Shown: positions 3,821-59,218 of the stretch, one piece after another
Numbering within the stretch: position 1 is the stretch's first letter
Layout of the letters: each line of letters begins with the position of its first letter
Assembly (NCBI GenBank): GCA_002423155.1
Contig: DIUV01000045.1
Span: 3,276-67,275, forward strand
Source of the DNA: Alphaproteobacteria bacterium UBA6149
GTDB taxonomy: Bacteria; Pseudomonadota; Alphaproteobacteria; Rickettsiales; UBA998
DNA length: 64,000 nucleotides
Direction of reading: 5' to 3'
Position numbers and translations under genes: made by a program
The notes under the pieces: generated by a model
Seen by the model: only the letters and a program-made list of their open reading frames with translations
Told to the model about the DNA's origin: nothing
The model's database searches: none

Positions 3821-3980
3821 TTCCCCCTCTCCCTCTGGGAGAGGGACGGGGTGAGGGAAGCCTAACTAAAATACAAAGCTTTCTGTCGCTATAATATGTT
3901 GATATTAAAACAACAAAATAGCAAAAAAATTTTATGGATAGTTCCCTCACCCCATCCCTCTCCCAGAGGGAGAGGGAGTT
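3821..3980. repeat. Family-A double-hairpin palindromic element (intergenic copy)
   Basis: The left arm (3821-3860, ttccccctctccctctgggagagggacggggtgagggaag) and the right arm (3942-3978) are near-perfect reverse complements. The same arms recur at 17014-17123, with a half copy at 32833-32857. Confidence 0.85.
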
Positions 3981-16902: not shown

Positions 16903-17733
16903 TTGTATGACAATTTGATGACAATTAACCAAAACCACATAAGCAAAAATTTCTCCCAAGCTGCCCACCAATATGATGCGCATGCCCATTTACAAAAACA
17001 GGTGGCAGAAAACTCCCTCTCCCTCTGGGAGAGGGTCGGGGTGAGGGAAGTATCTGCAAATTCGAATTCTTTCTTTGTGTTGAAGCTTCCCTCACCCCAG
17101 CCCTCTCCCAGAGGGAGAGGGAGTTTAGCCCTTGACCTGGGCTGTGGCACTGGTTATCTATCGCAGCTCCTACCAAAACAAAAAATCTACCAACTAGATA
17201 TATCCGAGAACATGTGCCGCCTTGCCCAGCGCAAAAACCCGAGCATCTGCGCGGATGCCCATACTTTGCCCTTTGCAAACGCCAGCTTTTCGCTAATATT
17301 TTCCTCCCTCTGCCTGCAATGGGCAATCAACAAACCGAAAACATTGGAAGAAATCTACCGCGTCCTCCAACCCAATGCCCACGCCATCATCAGCGTACTC
17401 GGCACCCAAACCTTGCAAGAACTCCGCCAAGCTTATACCTGCGCGCACATTCCCTCCCCCCTATTAAATTTTTTAACCTTAGAAGAATGGAGCAACCTAG
17501 CGCAGACGGCTGGTTTAAAAATCCTCACCCAACATAGCGAAATAATCACCCAAACCCATGAATCTCCGCTGGCACTGATGCGCTCATTAAAAAACATCGG
17601 CGCCAATACCCCAAGCATTACCATTAAAGGACTAAACGGACGCCAAACCTTGCGAAAAGTTGAAAATGCCTATATTGGTAAGCAAGCCAGCTTTGAAGTA
17701 ATTTATTTAGTCTTACAAAAATGCCCCCTCTAA
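16903..17733 (+). CDS. bioC: Malonyl-ACP O-methyltransferase (BioC-type SAM methyltransferase) carrying an in-frame repeat insertion
   Basis: ISKNFSQAAHQYDAHAHLQKQVAE, then the SAM motif LDLGCGTGYLSQLL. It overlaps bioD by 13 nt. Codons at about 17014-17123 derive from the family-A repeat (LSLWERVGVRE...PSPQPSPRGRGS). Confidence 0.8.
   Translation: MYDNLMTINQNHISKNFSQAAHQYDAHAHLQKQVAENSLSLWERVGVREVSANSNSFFVLKLPSPQPSPRGRGSLALDLGCGTGYLSQLLPKQKIYQLDISENMCRLAQRKNPSICADAHTLPFANASFSLIFSSLCLQWAINKPKTLEEIYRVLQPNAHAIISVLGTQTLQELRQAYTCAHIPSPLLNFLTLEEWSNLAQTAGLKILTQHSEIITQTHESPLALMRSLKNIGANTPSITIKGLNGRQTLRKVENAYIGKQASFEVIYLVLQKCPL
17014..17123. repeat. Family-A palindromic element inside bioC
   Basis: Arms at 17014-17050 and 17087-17123 are reverse complements of each other and near-identical to the arms at 3821-3980. 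Confidence 0.85.
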
Positions 17734-18551
17734 ACAGAAAATTTTTCATCAGCGCAACCGGCACGAATATGGGCAAAACCTTCGTCACCTGCCTATTAAC
17801 TCGCCAATTAATCGCTAGTGGCGAAAAAGTCCGCGCTATTAAACCAGTAATCAGCGGATTTTCCGAGCCAAGCACGAGCGATAGCGGACTTTTGCTTGCT
17901 GCCCAGAATCTATCTTCGCATGACTTAGAAAAAATCTCCCCTTGGCGTTTTGCTGCGCCCATCAGCCCCCACGCAGCAGACAGCGAAAAAACCATTTCCC
18001 TTGATAAACTAACCGCTTTTTGCCAACCCAAAACGCAAGAGATATTACTAATCGAAGGCGCAGGCGGAATCATGACCCCCCTCACCGACCATGCCACCAA
18101 TCTTGATTGGGCAAACGAACTAAACGCGCAAATAATATTAGTAATCGGCGATTATCTGGGAACTTTAAGCCACACGCTTACCGCTATAGAAGCCATAAAA
18201 ACCCGTAACTTACCCATAGCGGCAGTTATAATAAATCAATTTACCGCAAGTAGCCAACCAAAGCAAAGTAACCAATCGCTAATTTCATTATTTTTTTCAC
18301 AACACTTTCCGTTGTCATCCCGCCGCAGGGCGGGATCCATGCCTAACCACGAACTGTTCAGCCAATTGATTGACATGGATCCCGCCCTGCGGCGGGATGA
18401 CAACAAAGAATTTGGAGAAAAAAACATACCTGATAAATTTACCAATACCCGACAAACCTTACAAACTTTCCACCCCCAGATAAAATTTATGCTATTACCA
18501 AAAGCCACAAAAAATGTTAAGCTACCTGACTTAACAGGAATATGCACATGA
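17721..18551 (+). CDS. bioD: Dethiobiotin synthetase carrying an in-frame long-form repeat insertion
   Basis: The N-terminal P-loop is FFISATGTNMGKTFV, followed by LLIEGAGGIMTPL. At 276 aa it is about 60 aa longer than a typical BioD, and the excess maps to the family-B element at about 18260-18450. Confidence 0.8.
   Translation: MPPLNRKFFISATGTNMGKTFVTCLLTRQLIASGEKVRAIKPVISGFSEPSTSDSGLLLAAQNLSSHDLEKISPWRFAAPISPHAADSEKTISLDKLTAFCQPKTQEILLIEGAGGIMTPLTDHATNLDWANELNAQIILVIGDYLGTLSHTLTAIEAIKTRNLPIAAVIINQFTASSQPKQSNQSLISLFFSQHFPLSSRRRAGSMPNHELFSQLIDMDPALRRDDNKEFGEKNIPDKFTNTRQTLQTFHPQIKFMLLPKATKNVKLPDLTGICT
18260..18450. repeat. Family-B nested palindromic element (copy B1) inside bioD
   Basis: The core at 18311-18404 (gttgtcatcccgccgcagggcgggatccatgcc ... 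catggatcccgccctgcggcgggatgacaac) is a perfect-looking inverted repeat. The left flank (accaatcgctaatttcattattttttt) matches the outer arm of copies B3/B8/B9. The right outer arm is degenerate, so the boundaries are approximate. Confidence 0.75.
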
Positions 18552-19156
18552 AAGAACAGCTCGAAAAATTACTAAAATGGCAGCCTAAACCTCTGTTCAG
18601 CTCCCGCCCAATAGAAGATTCACAAACAGGCATGTATTATGCCAGCACCAATGACCGAGTTTTTGCTTCGGTAATTGATACTGCATGGACATCTTTTTTA
18701 TTATTACCTTTATTCAGCTGGTTAGACCAATTATTCTTCACAGGAATGGACGCATCACAATTTCTACTTAGCCTGAGCACCGCCCCCAGCGTGCAAGAAA
18801 AACTAGAAATAATCCAAAATAGCGGCGCTATTAACCGCATATTAGGCAATAATTTAATACAAACCACCATCTTATCCGCCATCATTTTAAGCCTATGGTT
18901 TTACGGCGGAACCACCCCGGGTAAGTGGCTATTAAAAATGCGCATAGTCGATGCAAAAACAGGTGCGGCTCCCTCACGCAAACAATTTATAAAAAGGCTC
19001 CTCGGCTACATCCCCTCCGCCTTATTTTTCATGCTGGGATTTTTCTGGATTAGCTGGGACAAAAAACGCCAAGGCTGGCATGACAAAATCGCCAACACGG
19101 TGGTAATTAAAGAAAAAAAATGGTCGCATCCAAGGAAAAAGTATCAGCAATTCTAA
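18542..19156 (+). CDS. RDD-family membrane protein
   Basis: The C-terminal half (GKWLLKMRIVDAKTGAAPSRKQFIKRLLGY...GWHDKIANTVVI) has the RDD-domain pattern with TM helices. It overlaps the bioD end. Confidence 0.7.
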   Translation: MHMKEQLEKLLKWQPKPLFSSRPIEDSQTGMYYASTNDRVFASVIDTAWTSFLLLPLFSWLDQLFFTGMDASQFLLSLSTAPSVQEKLEIIQNSGAINRILGNNLIQTTILSAIILSLWFYGGTTPGKWLLKMRIVDAKTGAAPSRKQFIKRLLGYIPSALFFMLGFFWISWDKKRQGWHDKIANTVVIKEKKWSHPRKKYQQF

Positions 19157-19332
19157 AACCATTTTTTATCCGCCAAAATATCCTTGTCATACCAGCGTAG
19201 GCTGGTATCCATGCCTATCCGCAAGAGAAATTTCTCAATAAATTATAGAATTCACCGTTATAGATAGGCATGGATACCGCCCTGCGGCGGTATGACAACG
19301 GATATTTTGGCGGATAAAAAATAGTTTTAGAA
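19151..19332. repeat. Family-B nested palindromic element (copy B2)
   Basis: The outer inverted repeat is ttctaaaaccattttttatccgccaaaatatcc (19151-19183) against ggatattttggcggataaaaaatagttttagaa (19300-19332). The inner core is gtcataccagcgtaggctggtatccatgcc / ggcatggataccgccctgcggcggtatgac. Confidence 0.85.
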
Positions 19333-19364
19333 TTGCTGAAAAAGTAGGGTTTAAAAAAGTAAGA

Positions 19365-27001: not shown

Positions 27002-27192
27002 TAGACTAAATAATAAACTAATTGTAGCAACACATCTGCGCCGTTTTTTCCTCTTCAAAATCCTCACGTAGCACAGCTACGCTGCCCCTTCTCTAAAAAC
27101 ATGACATTAAGTCATGTTTTTTAAACGTTCAGGGTTTCATCAGAAAGAAACGACACATCTGCGTTACTACAATTAGTTTATGGTGCAGTCTA
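27002..27192. repeat. Family-E palindromic element
   Basis: The terminal inverted repeats are tagact..ataaactaattgtagcaac (27002-27030) and gttactacaattagtttat..agtcta (27163-27192). The internal hairpin is aaaaacatgac-attaa-gtcatgttttt. Confidence 0.7.
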
Positions 27193-28332: not shown

Positions 28333-28526
28333 CAGGGCAAAAGCACCAATCGTTAATTTTGTCTTTTTGCGATAAAATTCACCATTGTCATACCGCTGTA
28401 GAGCGGTATCCATGCCAAACCATTGGCTTTTCAGCTTGTTGATAGGCATGGATACCGTCCTGCGACGGTATGACGATGGATAATTTAGTAAAAACAACGA
28501 AATTAACGATTTATGATTTTGCCCTG
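28333..28526. repeat. Family-B long-form nested palindromic element (copy B3)
   Basis: A palindrome of about 194 bp, from cagggcaaaagcaccaatcgttaattttgtcttttt... to ...aacgaaattaacgatttatgattttgccctg. The core is gtcataccgctgtagagcggtatccatgcc / ggcatggataccgtcctgcgacggtatgac. Confidence 0.85.
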
Positions 28527-28649
28527 AAAATAATTATAAGAAAAGATTGACTTTTATATTCCCGACCATTAGAAGAAACCCTCTTTTAAAAGCTTAGAGC
28601 TTGTTAAAAAGTTCTTATTTTAAGAAATATTATTATTTTAAGAAATAAG

Positions 28650-28726
<77 letters not shown>

Positions 28727-39920: not shown

Positions 39921-40166
39921 GAACTATAGAAAGCTCTGCGAAAGCGGAGCTCAGGGCAAAATGCTAGATTGTTAATTTGGTTGTTTTTGCTAAAATCATC
40001 TCCTTTGTCATGCCGCTGTAGAGCGGCATCCATGCCAAGCCATTGGCTTGATAGCTAGTTGATAGGCATGGATACCGTCCTTCGACGGTATGACAATGGA
40101 TAATTTAATAAAAAAAGAAAAATTAACGATTTAGCATTTCACCGTGAAGCAGAGATTTCTATAGTT
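39921..40166. repeat. Family-B long-form nested palindromic element (copy B4) with an extra outer inverted repeat
   Basis: The outermost inverted repeat is gaactatagaaagctctgc (39921-39939) against gcagagatttctatagtt (40149-40166). The inner arms and core are as in B3/B8/B9. Confidence 0.85.
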
Positions 40167-40226: not shown

Positions 40227-40429
40227 GGCTCGCTCGCACTACCCGACACTTTTTATTTTTTTTCGTGCTCTCCGTCGTCATCCCCGCCTTATGCGGGGAT
40301 CTAGGGCTACAAATTCGGTCTTTTTTGTGTCCCGAGATCCCCGCACAAGGCGGGGATGACAACCGAGTGTGTTGGTATTTAATAAACATTTTATAGCACA
40401 AAAAAAGTGTCGGGTAGTGTGAGGCTCGC
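40227..40429. repeat. Family-B variant nested palindrome (copy B5)
   Basis: The outer inverted repeat is gcactacccgacacttttt / aaaaagtgtcgggtagtg. The inner one is gtcgtcatccccgcc..ggggatct / agatccccgc..ggcggggatgacaac. It is preceded by a family-C fragment (ttggaattgctatagg, 40213-40229). Confidence 0.8.
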
Positions 40430-41046: not shown

Positions 41047-41305
41047 GCAATTTCCACCCTACACGACAGTACCGTTAATATTACGAAGCTATTGAATGGT
41101 AAGTATTTATTTCTTAAAATCGCTCTCTCCGTCGTCATTCCTGCTGCGGCTAAGAATCTCTTTTTCCGCTTGTGAGTGCCTCGTTTAGGGCGAAAGAGAT
41201 TCTTAGCCGCAGCAGGAATGACGACGGAGAGAGCGAACTTTTTTATTGTATTTCAATATATAAATGCCTTGTTAATACTACTGTCGTGTAGGGTGAGCAA
41301 TTTCA
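41047..41305. repeat. Family-B variant nested palindrome (copy B6)
   Basis: The outer inverted repeat is caccctacacgacagta / tactgtcgtgtagggtg. The inner one is cgctctctccgtcgtcattcctgctgcggctaagaatctcttt / aaagagattcttagccgcagcaggaatgacgacggagagagcg. Confidence 0.8.
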
Positions 41306-41562
41306 CCAATTATTAAGATCTTAACTATTGTTTTTCTATACACAACAATGCCATCAATAACAGATCCATAATATTGATATATAATATTTTTTATGAAGAA
41401 TACATCCATCGTAATCCCGCCGCAGGGCGGGATCCAGGTTTAGCCACATACTGCGTATTCGTGGTTAGGCATGGATCCCGCCCTGCGGCGGGATGACAAC
41501 GTCTTGTTCTATAACAATACTAAAAAACAATAGTTAAAATTTTAATAATTGGTGAAATTTCC
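41297..41562. repeat. Family-B nested palindrome (copy B7), abutting B6
   Basis: The outer inverted repeat is gcaatttcaccaattattaagatcttaactattgttttt / aaaaacaatagttaaaattttaataattggtgaaattt. The core is cgtaatcccgccgcagggcgggatcc / ggatcccgccctgcggcgggatgacaacg. Confidence 0.8.
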
Positions 41563-51170: not shown

Positions 51171-51209
51171 TGGGAGAGTATCTGGCTGGGAGAGTATCTG
51201 GCTGGGAGA
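51171..51209. repeat. 16-bp tandem duplication that includes the 3' end of tRNA-Gln
   Basis: tgggagagtatctggc (51171-86), tgggagagtatctggc (51187-202), tgggaga (51203-09). The last unit is the tRNA acceptor strand. Confidence 0.85.
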
Positions 51210-51272
51210 CTAGGATTCGAACCTAGATTGACGGAGTCAGAGTCCGCTGTCCTACCATTAGACGATCTCCCA
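51199..51272 (-). tRNA. tRNA-Gln (anticodon CUG), CCA encoded
   Basis: A manual cloverleaf on the minus strand fits: TGGGAGA acceptor, D arm GTCT/GGAC, anticodon arm GCGGA-CTCTGAC-TCCGT, T arm CTAGG-TTCGAAT-CCTAG, then TCTCCCA-G-CCA. 74 nt. Confidence 0.9.
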
Positions 51273-51333: not shown

Positions 51334-51522
51334 GGCAATTTCACCAATCGTTAATTTTGTCTTTTTGCAATAAAACTCTCTATTGTCATGCAGCACGTAG
51401 AGCGGCATCCATGCAAAACCATTGGCTTATCCGCTAGTTGATAGGCATGGATACCGCCCTGCGGCGGCATGACAATAGATATTTTAGTGAAAAAAGACAA
51501 AATTAACGATTGGTGAAATCGC
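51334..51522. repeat. Family-B long-form nested palindromic element (copy B8)
   Basis: ggcaatttcaccaatcgttaattttgtctttttg ... caaaattaacgattggtgaaatcgc. The core is gtcatgcagcacgtagagcggcatccatgc / ggcatggataccgccctgcggcggcatgac. Confidence 0.85.
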
Positions 51523-51631
51523 ACTGTAGTTTTTGCGAGATATAAAATTCATAATAAAATACCTAATTGCATCAAGCTACATCTCCTGTTACTTATCCAA
51601 CAAGTTTGCAAAAAAATTGAAAGGAACTATT

Positions 51632-52244: not shown

Positions 52245-53036
52245 ATGCCCATCCAATCACCATTAATTAATGTGATGGTGTCGGCGGTACGTAAAGCCTC
52301 TCGCGGATTGATGCGCGATTTTGGCGAAGTGGATCATTTGCAAATTTCGCGCAAAGGTCCTTCTGATTTTGTTACTGAAACGGATTTGCGTACCGAAAAA
52401 TTATTAAAAGCGGAGCTGCATAAATCGCGCCCTAAATTTGGTTTTTTGCTGGAAGAAAGTGGCGAATTTCCTAGCGAAGAATCCGAATTTCGCTGGGTGG
52501 TCGATCCTTTAGACGGCACGACTAATTTTATCCATGCTATACCTTATTTCTGTATTTCTATTGGGGTAGAAAAAATCACCGATAAAGGGAGTGAAATCAT
52601 TGCAGGGGTGATTTATGATCCTATCCATGATGAATTATTCATGGCGGAAAAAGACAAAGGCGCTTATCTGAATCAAAGACGTTTACGGGTTTCCCCTCGT
52701 CGTTCTGATTTTTATTTCGTTACGGGTACGTCGCGTAGTTCTAGCCCTTATGCTGGGGCATCTGCTAAGTTAAATCAACATGTTACTACGTTAGACGGCG
52801 TTTTTCGTCGCAGTGGTTCCGCCGCTTTAGATTTGGCTTATGTGGCAGCTGCGCGTTATGATGCTTGCTGGTTTCCTAATTTAAAAAAATGGGATATGGC
52901 AGCAGGAATAATTCTGGTAAAAGAAGCAGGCGGCATTATCTCGCCACTTGGTCACGCGCAAGACGCCTACCAAGATGGCGCAATCTTGGCGGCCAGCCCT
53001 GAATCTCATCCGTTATTAATTGTCGGACAATCTTAG
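52245..53036 (+). CDS. suhB: Inositol monophosphatase family protein (SuhB-like)
   Basis: WVVDPLDGTTNF, WDMAAG, and the EESG pattern. Start chosen at the ATG at 52245. Confidence 0.82.
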   Translation: MPIQSPLINVMVSAVRKASRGLMRDFGEVDHLQISRKGPSDFVTETDLRTEKLLKAELHKSRPKFGFLLEESGEFPSEESEFRWVVDPLDGTTNFIHAIPYFCISIGVEKITDKGSEIIAGVIYDPIHDELFMAEKDKGAYLNQRRLRVSPRRSDFYFVTGTSRSSSPYAGASAKLNQHVTTLDGVFRRSGSAALDLAYVAAARYDACWFPNLKKWDMAAGIILVKEAGGIISPLGHAQDAYQDGAILAASPESHPLLIVGQS

Positions 53037-53198
53037 AACCTGTCGCCAATCTTTTTATTTTGGCAATTTTTTCTAGTTTTGAGCGAAAATAGCAAGACAA
53101 TTCGAGAGTATAGCTATTCTATTTCAAGAATTGTCTTGCTATTTGCAGCCAAAATTGGGAGAAATGGACAAATAAAAAGATTGGCGACAGGTTCTTAA
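53033..53198. repeat. Family-D palindromic element
   Basis: The terminal inverted repeat is agaacctgtcgccaatctttttatt / aataaaaagattggcgacaggttct. The inner one is aaaatagcaagacaattc / gaattgtcttgctatttg. The left end overlaps the suhB-like stop codon. Confidence 0.8.
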
Positions 53199-58897: not shown

Positions 58898-58985
58898 AAT
58901 ACCTAACCCCTATAGTAGTTTTTGTGCAATGCATATAAAACCGCAAGTAACCGCAGAAGTAAAGCAAAAATATGCTTTTTATCAA

Positions 58986-59174
58986 GGCGATTTCCCCAAT
59001 CGTTAATTTTGTCTTTTTGTAATAAAACTCTCCATTGTCATGCAGCACGAAGAGCGGCATCCATGCCAAACCATGGGCTTATCCGCTAGTTGATAGGCAT
59101 GGATACCGTCCTACGACGGTATGACAAGAGATATTTTAGTGAAAAAATGTCAAATTAACGATTGGTGAAATCGC
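58986..59174. repeat. Family-B long-form nested palindromic element (copy B9)
   Basis: ggcgatttccccaatcgttaattttgtctttttg ... gtcaaattaacgattggtgaaatcgcc. It is nearly identical to B8. Confidence 0.85.
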
Positions 59175-59218
59175 CCTGTGCTTTTTATGCATTAGTTCCG
59201 CACTGGATATTATCTAAA

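Follow-up and report, generated by a model that had tools for sequence, protein, structure and literature searches.

An in-frame nested palindrome, an inverted REP dimer within a MITE shell, in bioD of an uncultured alphaproteobacterium

The 64,000-nt stretch of contig DIUV01000045.1 from Alphaproteobacteria bacterium UBA6149 analyzed here (the window) carries a bioD gene whose coding sequence is interrupted by a nested palindrome, read through in the frame of the gene as 59 extra codons. The palindrome has two layers, an inverted dimer of repetitive extragenic palindromic (REP) hairpins and, around it, the arms of a family of MITEs (miniature transposable elements with inverted repeats) that is present in several intergenic copies in the window. 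The analysis makes it probable that bioD received the insert through transposition of a composite, non-autonomous repeat, which is tolerated there.

The bioD gene and the position of the insert

The gene, the insert and the part of BioD that follows it are located as follows:

17721–18551 (+): bioD open reading frame (ORF) including the insert, 276 aa (TIGR00347, orthologue alignment)
18261–18437 (+): the extra 59 codons, K181–K239, best-fitting excision against the hidden Markov model (HMM) of the orthologues
18438–18551 (+): native C-terminal BioD segment, FTNTRQTLQTFHPQIKFMLLPKATKNVKLPDLTGICT (profile alignment, AlphaFold2 pLDDT)

The protein is recognized as BioD by the equivalog model TIGR00347 with 120.3 bits (cut-off 83.3), and PF13500 matches residues 6–189 and nothing further. 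As the first-pass annotation had remarked, its 276 residues are too many; the 76 orthologues in our alignment (A3, 77 sequences with the window protein) have 210–244, and 59 codons are extra relative to them. All 16 columns invariant across the 77 sequences are kept (G14, T15, G18, K19, T20, K41, P42, G46, D54, P74, P83, E112, G115, G116, G147 and H151), and the P-loop GTxxGKT, K41, D54 and the E112-GxGG motif are all present in the alignment. The ATG at 17721 overlaps the stop codon of bioC and agrees with the starts of the orthologues. The start at M17 (17769) chosen in one public annotation (P0001, 260 aa) was rejected, since part of the P-loop strand would then be missing.

The position of the insert was obtained by scoring all internal deletions of the window BioD against the HMM built from the 76 orthologues, with the following results:

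Full-length window BioD: 260.8 bits
Without residues 181–239 (59 aa; nt 18261–18437): 272.3 bits, the best excision
Without residues 194–252, the element-encoded helix being used as the last helix: 261.9 bits
Without the 66 aa between the AATTTACC repeats (see below): 257.7 bits

Of the 32 deletion starts that were scored, 22 gave their best result with a 59-residue excision, among them all of 173–190 and 192–194, and the edges can slide by a few codons at nearly equal score. In the DNA, the insert has its edge at 18259, in the codon (18258–18260) of Pro180, the last residue that looks native. It follows this residue in the loop that connects the last core strand (VIIN) to the C-terminal helix. 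It starts where the last helix begins, about eight residues past N172, which pairs in the alignment with N175 of E. coli BioD, a residue that we take to be an adenine contact. Downstream of the insert, where the presence or absence of BioD homology had been proposed as a check, residues 239–274 (KFTNTRQTLQTFHPQIKFMLLPKATKNVKLPDLTGI) align with positions 185–221 of the orthologue profile, and the 37-residue native tail is in frame and alignable. With regard to the identity of the C-terminal helix, the HMM comparison favours the post-insert segment over the element-encoded helix by about 10 bits.

In the AlphaFold2 (AF2) model calculated with the 77-sequence alignment, pLDDT values exceed 90 in the BioD core, and the model resembles BioD crystal structures at target-normalised TM scores of 0.72–0.75. 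The insert is mostly of low confidence, with pLDDT below 50 at residues 199–207 and 220–250, while the mean values of the 10-residue blocks across residues 251–276 are 71, 79 and 92.

An 8-bp direct repeat, AATTTACC, is found at 18238–18245 and 18436–18443, 198 bp apart and in frame (QFT / KFT), and exceeds chance only marginally (45/2000 shuffles). It was considered as a target duplication and rejected, being 13 nt off the left terminus, and the corresponding 66-aa excision is 14.6 bits worse than the 59-aa one (257.7 vs 272.3). The two repeats could permit a precise in-frame loss of the insert through slippage.

The public proteins nearest to the window BioD are the same protein from other assemblies of the organism, namely a JGI metagenome contig, an 89-kb NCBI contig and a GEM metagenome-assembled genome (MAG). 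The next-nearest BioD is only 49% identical, the top matches being unnamed metagenome proteins and the named ones alphaproteobacterial. It has to be considered here that a metagenome assembler might have misplaced a repeat in bioD, a concern already raised in the first-pass annotation, as the contig was assembled from a metagenome, the repeat family has frequent copies, and the public assemblies probably come from the same reads. We consider this extremely improbable, however. The two flanks are collinear parts of one BioD, the length of the insert preserves the frame, and the copy is unique, its identity of 73–76% to all others ruling out a collapsed repeat and leaving no template for a chimeric join. 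In addition, the separately assembled JGI contig (99.93% identity, 0 mismatches over 6783 bp) encodes an identical BioD.

Anatomy of the element and its relatives

The element consists of the following parts:

18259–18310 (+): left outer arm of the MITE shell, CAAAGCAAAGTAACCAATCGCTAATTT..., corresponding to the family terminus CAGGGCAAAATCACCAATCGTTAATTT... (homology to intergenic copies)
18311–18341 (+): left inner arm with unit 1; TGTC tag, 8-bp stem ATCCCGCC/GGCGGGAT, loop GCAG, tail CCA
18342–18373 (+): 32-nt spacer, of a sequence common to the intergenic copies
18374–18404 (−): right inner arm with unit 2, inverted, the perfect complement of unit 1
18405–18426 (+): right outer arm, recognizable part (the profile alignment ends at 18426)
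18427–18450 (+): junction of uncertain origin, in which the family-terminal ~28 nt, AAATTAACGATTGGTGAAATCGCCCTG, are not recognizable

The core is a perfect 31-nt inverted repeat (18311–18341 / 18374–18404) flanking the 32-nt spacer, exactly between the coordinates given for it in the first-pass annotation. The 29-mer TGTCATCCCGCCGCAGGGCGGGATCCATG occurs at 18313–18341 (+) and 18374–18402 (−), and with at most three mismatches it has 6 matches in the window, compared to 0.00 expected. The extended arms 18291–18341 and 18374–18424 are 86% complementary, and the RNA of 18259–18453 (195 nt) is calculated to fold with −77.3 kcal/mol (z = −9.7 vs shuffles). A CRISPR-like reading of the 29-nt repeat and 32-nt spacer was discarded, as the units are inverted rather than direct. 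No intrinsic terminator was predicted within bioD.

The outer arms relate the element to a repeat family, denoted family B, with full-length intergenic copies at 28334–28529, 39957–40141, 51334–51523 and 58983–59178 (blastn, nhmmer). These four are mutually 82–91% identical and show 73–76% identity to the bioD copy, whose left flank matches their outer arm in both blastn and the nhmmer profile, as had been proposed. The inner core is also found, with diverged outer arms, at 19144–19339 and 41296–41562. The bioD element begins at 18259 with CAAAGC, the counterpart of the family's CAGGGC. Its earlier description as a complete copy has to be revised, because the four-copy profile aligns with 18263–18426 only (model positions 3–165 of 194); the left terminal inverted repeat is in place at 18259, and the ~28 nt of the right one are absent or unrecognizable. 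Direct reading of the flanks revealed no target duplication adjoining the bioD copy.

The intergenic family-B copies end in CAGGGC...GCCCTG, the four full-length ones having terminal inverted repeats at both ends, and they are flanked by direct repeats of 7–10 bp. Target duplications could be read directly for five of the six related intergenic copies:

58983–59178: TGCTTTTTAT, 10 bp
28334–28529: AAAATAATTA, 10 bp
51334–51523: AGTTTTTG, 8 bp
39957–40141: AAGCGGAG / AAGCAGAG
19144–19339: AAAAGTA

These copies behave as MITEs, and the shell is a genome-specific, lineage-specific MITE family. The pattern of its arms had 0 matches in the metagenome contigs (a collection evidently without the sample of origin) and in the loci fetched from other genomes, and no autonomous partner sharing the family-B termini was found in the 64-kb window. 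As to the parent of the shell, ISAs1-type ends (CAGGG with 8–10 bp repeats) offer a tentative lead. A scan of the window at the Rfam gathering thresholds returned two tRNAs only and no match for the repeats. Of the four full family-B copies, two have a tRNA gene within ~120 bp (copy 28334–28529 near the tRNA at 28650–28723, copy 51334–51523 near that at 51202–51272). At 19144–19339, a copy whose inner core is the same but whose outer arm differs has entered the extreme end of an RDD-family gene (18542–19156), which now ends inside it (...KKYQQF*). The downstream duplicated site reads AAAAAGTAG, so that the original end of that gene would be ...KK*.

The inner element is an inverted dimer of 28-nt hairpins with the arrangement TGTC-AT-stem-GNAG-stem-AT-CCA. 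Judged by their sequence, its units are the already described CGTC-1 REPs and, at the same time, Ssn-related motifs (SRMs). CGTC-1 REPs often have the tag TGTC, an 8-bp stem starting with AT, a 4-nt loop and a CCA tail; they occur mostly as inverted dimers with 20–100 bp spacers, predominate in Alphaproteobacteria and are also found inside genes (PMC3733652). Both bioD units read TGTC-ATCCCGCC-GCAG-GGCGGGAT-CCA, and the 64 kb contain 8 matches to the SRM pattern given below, with dimer spacers of 32–57 nt. As single-stranded DNA (ssDNA), the Neisseria NTS (CGTCATTCCCGCGMAVGCGGGAATCYRG) and the SRMs are bound, and cut a few nt upstream, by the 94-aa GIY-YIG nuclease SsnA. Copies of the motif typically flank the ssnA gene, and the GTC preceding the stem and the C following it matter for cleavage and binding (PMC11893778). 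The published SRM pattern, HGTCWYN(0-2)YYVSBRHN(0-5)WNVSBRGN(0-2)RNCYNB (PMC11893778), matches the bioD units at 18313–18340 (+) and 18375–18402 (−) and has 8 matches in the window, as compared to 0.08 expected from 100 dinucleotide shuffles.

An exact-pattern scan with one genome per species located the inner unit in 40 loci of other genomes, where it stands without the family-B shell. The loci belong mostly to Alphaproteobacteria (Rickettsiales-labelled MAGs, Nisaea, Hyphomicrobiaceae and Azospirillaceae), with a few MAGs labelled otherwise. Covariation of the stem was examined on 55 distinct units with at least 7 of 8 stem pairs, anchored on their unpaired flanks. Pairs 1 and 2 are fixed as A-T and T-A and the loop is GNAG, and pairs 3, 6 and 7 show all four Watson–Crick types.

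A ~96-aa single-domain GIY-YIG gene bracketed by units, one in each orientation, is present in three of the 40 loci and in every further context sampled:

L025: 5044–5418
L026: 5007–5380
L015: 4331–4771
L042: 1342–1895
L043, L044, L045 and L046: ~1461–1833

The contexts of these genes are unrelated (glyA–nrdR, ftsW–murD, a flagellar operon, between carboxylase genes, comEC–trpC and iscU–iscA), and the bracketing stems vary by genome yet stay complementary. This layout agrees with the published NTS-ssnA-NTS architecture. For the protein, Pfam gives PF01541 only, NCBIfam a weak, sub-threshold group I intron endonuclease match only, and a PDB search only spurious WD40 matches. One of these loci, L042, originates from the metagenome sample of the window contig and has a similar GC content. 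Its GIY-YIG gene lies between iscU and iscA with two complete flanking dimers, and the locus shares TCGCTCTCTCCGT and the ACAACGGAT-TTTTGG flanks with the window copies. Within the 64-kb window, no GIY-YIG homologue was found.

Two of the ssnA cassettes are accompanied by longer direct duplicates. In L044 (1430–1462 and 1843–1871) a 28-bp imperfect duplicate, TGTTCGAAAAAATTCTCATAGCCAACCG vs TGTTCGAGAAGATATTAATAGCCAACCG, corresponds to the 5' end of the downstream biotin-carboxylase-type gene (pccA start), and 0/2000 shuffles reach its score. A weaker 24-bp duplicate in L043 covers the ribosome-binding site and start region (9/500 shuffles). These duplicates could be a clue to how the cassettes insert. 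Along this line, Ssn-linked CGTC REP dimers might spread in two undescribed ways, within a target-duplicating MITE shell, as in this genome, and as SRM-ssnA-SRM cassettes and their miniatures, with imperfect target duplications of ~25–30 bp, a proposal that we regard as quite unlikely to hold. The long-duplication cassette route is suggested by the duplicates in L044 (0/2000), L043 (9/500) and bioD (45/2000). If it exists, it would be the first handle on the movement of CGTC REPs, and bioD, with its intact SRM pair, would serve as a substrate for the ssDNA nuclease of the cell itself.

Genic insertions and the origin of the bioD copy

The insert is read through without a stop, and the peptide quoted for it in the first-pass annotation is found in the 17721–18551 ORF. 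The accompanying suggestion that the reading frames of these elements are selected to stay open finds no support, as the six copies outside genes contain stops in 35 of 36 frames. In the frame corresponding to that of bioD, each of the four full intergenic copies has two stops. The bioD copy is open in the coding frame and, because the element is palindromic, also in the mirror antisense frame. Where TAG stands in three of the four full intergenic copies it has CAA, and where TAA stands in two of the four it has GAA. A 103-aa antisense ORF (18236–18547, −), whose product is a mirror of the insert peptide (...LSSRRRAGSM...GMDPALRRDDNG...), results from the palindrome and is no evidence for a gene.

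The window contains 13 palindromic elements, of which 11 are intergenic, even though 85% of its length is taken up by ORFs of 150 aa or more, which implies that genic insertions are mostly lost and that the two seen are survivors. The simplest reading is that genic insertions are strongly selected against, that the rare survivors kept the frame by chance or were repaired, and that the family as such is not made for coding. None of the 32 dimers in other genomes is convincingly intragenic. An apparent case in L012, a 422-aa ORF across the core, was rejected as a spurious GC-rich frame between convergent genes.

The second genic element is located in the adjoining gene, in line with the earlier claim that adjacent biotin genes each host a different in-frame palindrome:

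16903–17733: bioC, adjoining bioD
17010–17126 (+): family-A palindrome, 117 bp, in frame in bioC, of the CCCTCTCCC...GGGAGAGGG type and unrelated to the bioD element

TIGR02072 matches BioC in two stretches, resuming best at residue 76, and a comparison with E. coli BioC (an approximate sequence) gives a 26-aa gap at the element. Palindromes of family A, of the CCCTCTCCCTCTGGGAGAGGG...GGTGAGGG type, are seen in bioC at 17010–17126 (...SLSLWERVGVRE...PSPQPSPRGRGS...) and between genes at 3825–3976.

The location of the two insertions is the main argument for an alternative in which bioD and bioC are in early decay, biotin synthesis being dispensable, insertions no longer being removed and the open frame being a matter of time. 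The only two intragenic elements of the 13 sit in these adjacent biotin genes. It would also fit that BioC scores 168.4 bits, below the curated NCBIfam cut-off of 184.95, that the near-invariant Arg of the C-terminal "PR" motif of the orthologues is Lys in the native segment, and that a further biotin gene did not come to notice in those parts of the window that were read, the rest being unannotated. We nevertheless find such decay unlikely, considering that both ORFs are intact, that BioD retains every residue invariant in the 77 sequences and scores well above the TIGR00347 cut-off, that its 37-residue tail beyond the insert is still in frame and alignable, and that sense codons occupy the two positions where intergenic copies carry stops.

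According to the explanation that we favor, i.e., transposition into bioD followed by tolerance, the shell would be mobilized in trans by a DDE-type transposase, as suggested by the CAGGGC... inverted repeats and the target duplications, while the inner layer consists of REP hairpins of the type that small GIY-YIG ssDNA nucleases (SsnA) bind, cutting next to them. One copy would have landed behind Pro180, in a permissive surface loop, with the frame kept. Because of this location and of the preserved frame (59 codons, no stop), we infer that BioD is still functional. Afterwards, the right terminus and any target duplication would have disappeared from the copy, which for this reason is no longer mobile. 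No function of the insert is required; it is survivorship of the same kind as that of the genic palindromic elements of Rickettsia. Its presumed side effects are a 31-bp perfect RNA helix in the bioD message and an intact Ssn site on either DNA strand.

Several points weigh against this explanation. With neither a target duplication nor a right terminus visible, transposition into this particular site is deduced from the relatives of the element only. The nearest other BioD is 49% identical and there is no close relative, hence no empty site and no ratio of nonsynonymous to synonymous substitutions (dN/dS), and selection on the gene is unproven directly. That both genic insertions fall in the adjacent bioC and bioD could reflect a relaxed constraint on biotin synthesis. 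The AF2 model puts the element-encoded helix 182–193 where the alignment set the last helix of the orthologues; because MAFFT aligned that last helix to residues 182–193, the model cannot show which helix packs natively. Finally, the inner arms have 0 mismatches in 31 positions and the adjoining outer arms 7 in 20. A 44-nt block at the right inner arm is identical to the copy at 41454–41497, and the sequence points to a core that is homogenised or young. Since the perfect core and the 44-nt identity indicate homogenisation, the divergence of the shell cannot serve as a clean clock, and the age of the insertion is unclear.

The perfect core also bears on the possibility that the insert was co-opted, either as a new surface segment of BioD or as a cis element (a ribonuclease III-sensitive helix tuning bioD, or an Ssn pair limiting recombination or transformation at the bio locus). 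Conservation of the two Ssn-related units is perfect and extends to the GTC that precedes the stem and the C that follows it (PMC11893778), in a shell that has decayed, the 31-bp helix is very stable, and a GIY-YIG gene of the cognate type is flanked by the same units in the same sample (L042). However, recent gene conversion with a sister copy as donor accounts for the perfect core equally well, given the 44-nt identity to the 41.4-kb copy. A full HMMER scan of 1.84 billion representative proteins with the 59-aa insert peptide returned only the parent and two spurious repeat proteins, the AF2 confidence of the insert is low, and genes harbour only 2% of such sites in N. meningitidis, genic sites having no known role (PMC11893778). 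We thus consider co-option very unlikely, and transposition with tolerance remains the preferred explanation.

Further palindromes in the window are recorded here. The one at 40233–40423 (inner arms 40270–40313 / 40324–40367) represents a second CGTC/SRM-like unit type, CGTCATCCCCGCCTTATGCGGGGATCTAGG, whose tail is nearer to the NTS consensus of Neisseria; it has a palindromic shell of its own, with GCTCG as a direct repeat at its ends. A palindrome at 41120–41236 has 44-nt arms of 100% complementarity, TCGCTCTCTCCGTCGTCATTCCTGCTGCGGCTAAGAATCTCTTT, and its first 13 nt recur beside the SRM dimers flanking the GIY-YIG gene of L042. Two long palindromes, 27002–27192 and 53035–53195, are unrelated to families A and B and are intergenic or touch a gene end.

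Comparison with known systems

The bioD locus links three literatures, those on RPE and CGTC REPs, on MITEs and on the newly found motifs of Ssn nucleases. It is in addition a natural test case for the tolerance of an enzyme to a 59-residue insertion beside its nucleotide pocket and for the consequence of genic Ssn sites.

The units fit the SRM pattern of the NTS/SRM and SsnA system (Chenal et al. 2025, Nat Commun 16:2388; dRS3 in Neisseria), and the ~96-aa GIY-YIG genes that units bracket in related genomes, as well as in the metagenome sample of this contig, add to this likeness. The case differs in that the 64-kb window holds no GIY-YIG gene and the bioD sites are known from sequence alone, while in Neisseria genic sites are rare (2%), and MITE-nested dimers and in-frame genic copies are not discussed in PMC11893778. 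Like the REPINs associated with RAYTs (Bertels and Rainey; PMC3337134), the inner element combines two inverted REP hairpins and a short spacer into one long hairpin, as a miniature form of a unit whose hairpins flank a small nuclease gene. REPINs, however, have a GTAG tag and a Y1 (IS200-like) transposase, compared to the CGTC/TGTC tag and GIY-YIG gene here. Intragenic MITEs (ERIC, Coxiella QMITE1, Anabaena MITEs; PMC10969869, PMC2759123) are likewise non-autonomous inverted-repeat elements fused in frame with a host ORF, but they belong to other element families, none of them reported with an Ssn-related REP dimer.

The similarity to CGTC-1 REP dimers (Di Nocera, De Gregorio, Rocco 2013, BMC Genomics 14:522; PMC3733652) extends from the TGTC/CGTC tag, the AT-starting 8-bp stem, the GNAG loop and the CCA tail to the inverted dimer with a conserved 20–100 bp spacer, the alphaproteobacterial predominance and the intragenic copies. 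In H. neapolitanus every CGTC-1 dimer lies within a longer palindrome (PMC3733652), as does that of the bioD element. The shell of the latter, with ~50 nt per arm and relatives that have 8–10 bp target duplications, is not described in PMC3733652.

The closest precedent for the coding state is provided by the palindromic repeats of Rickettsia (RPE; Ogata et al. 2000, 2002; reviewed in PMC10969869). CGTC-tagged REPs are known as dRS3 in Neisseria and as RPE-6 and RPE-4 in R. conorii, the latter two being CGTC-1 and CGTC-4 REPs, respectively (PMC3733652). RPE-6 and RPE-4 thus resemble the inner units of bioD as CGTC-tagged REPs, a likeness that follows from PMC3733652 and not from a comparison of RPE consensus sequences. 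Common to both cases is an in-frame palindrome in alphaproteobacterial housekeeping or metabolic genes, read as an extra peptide at presumably tolerant surface positions. The differences are the host, here an uncultured alphaproteobacterial MAG, and the nesting of the REP dimer in a MITE shell whose relatives show target duplications. The Rickettsia-type coding palindrome is in this way extended to a distant, uncultured alphaproteobacterium. With coding palindromes long known from Rickettsia, the bioD case is a clear new example with a nested architecture rather than a new phenomenon.

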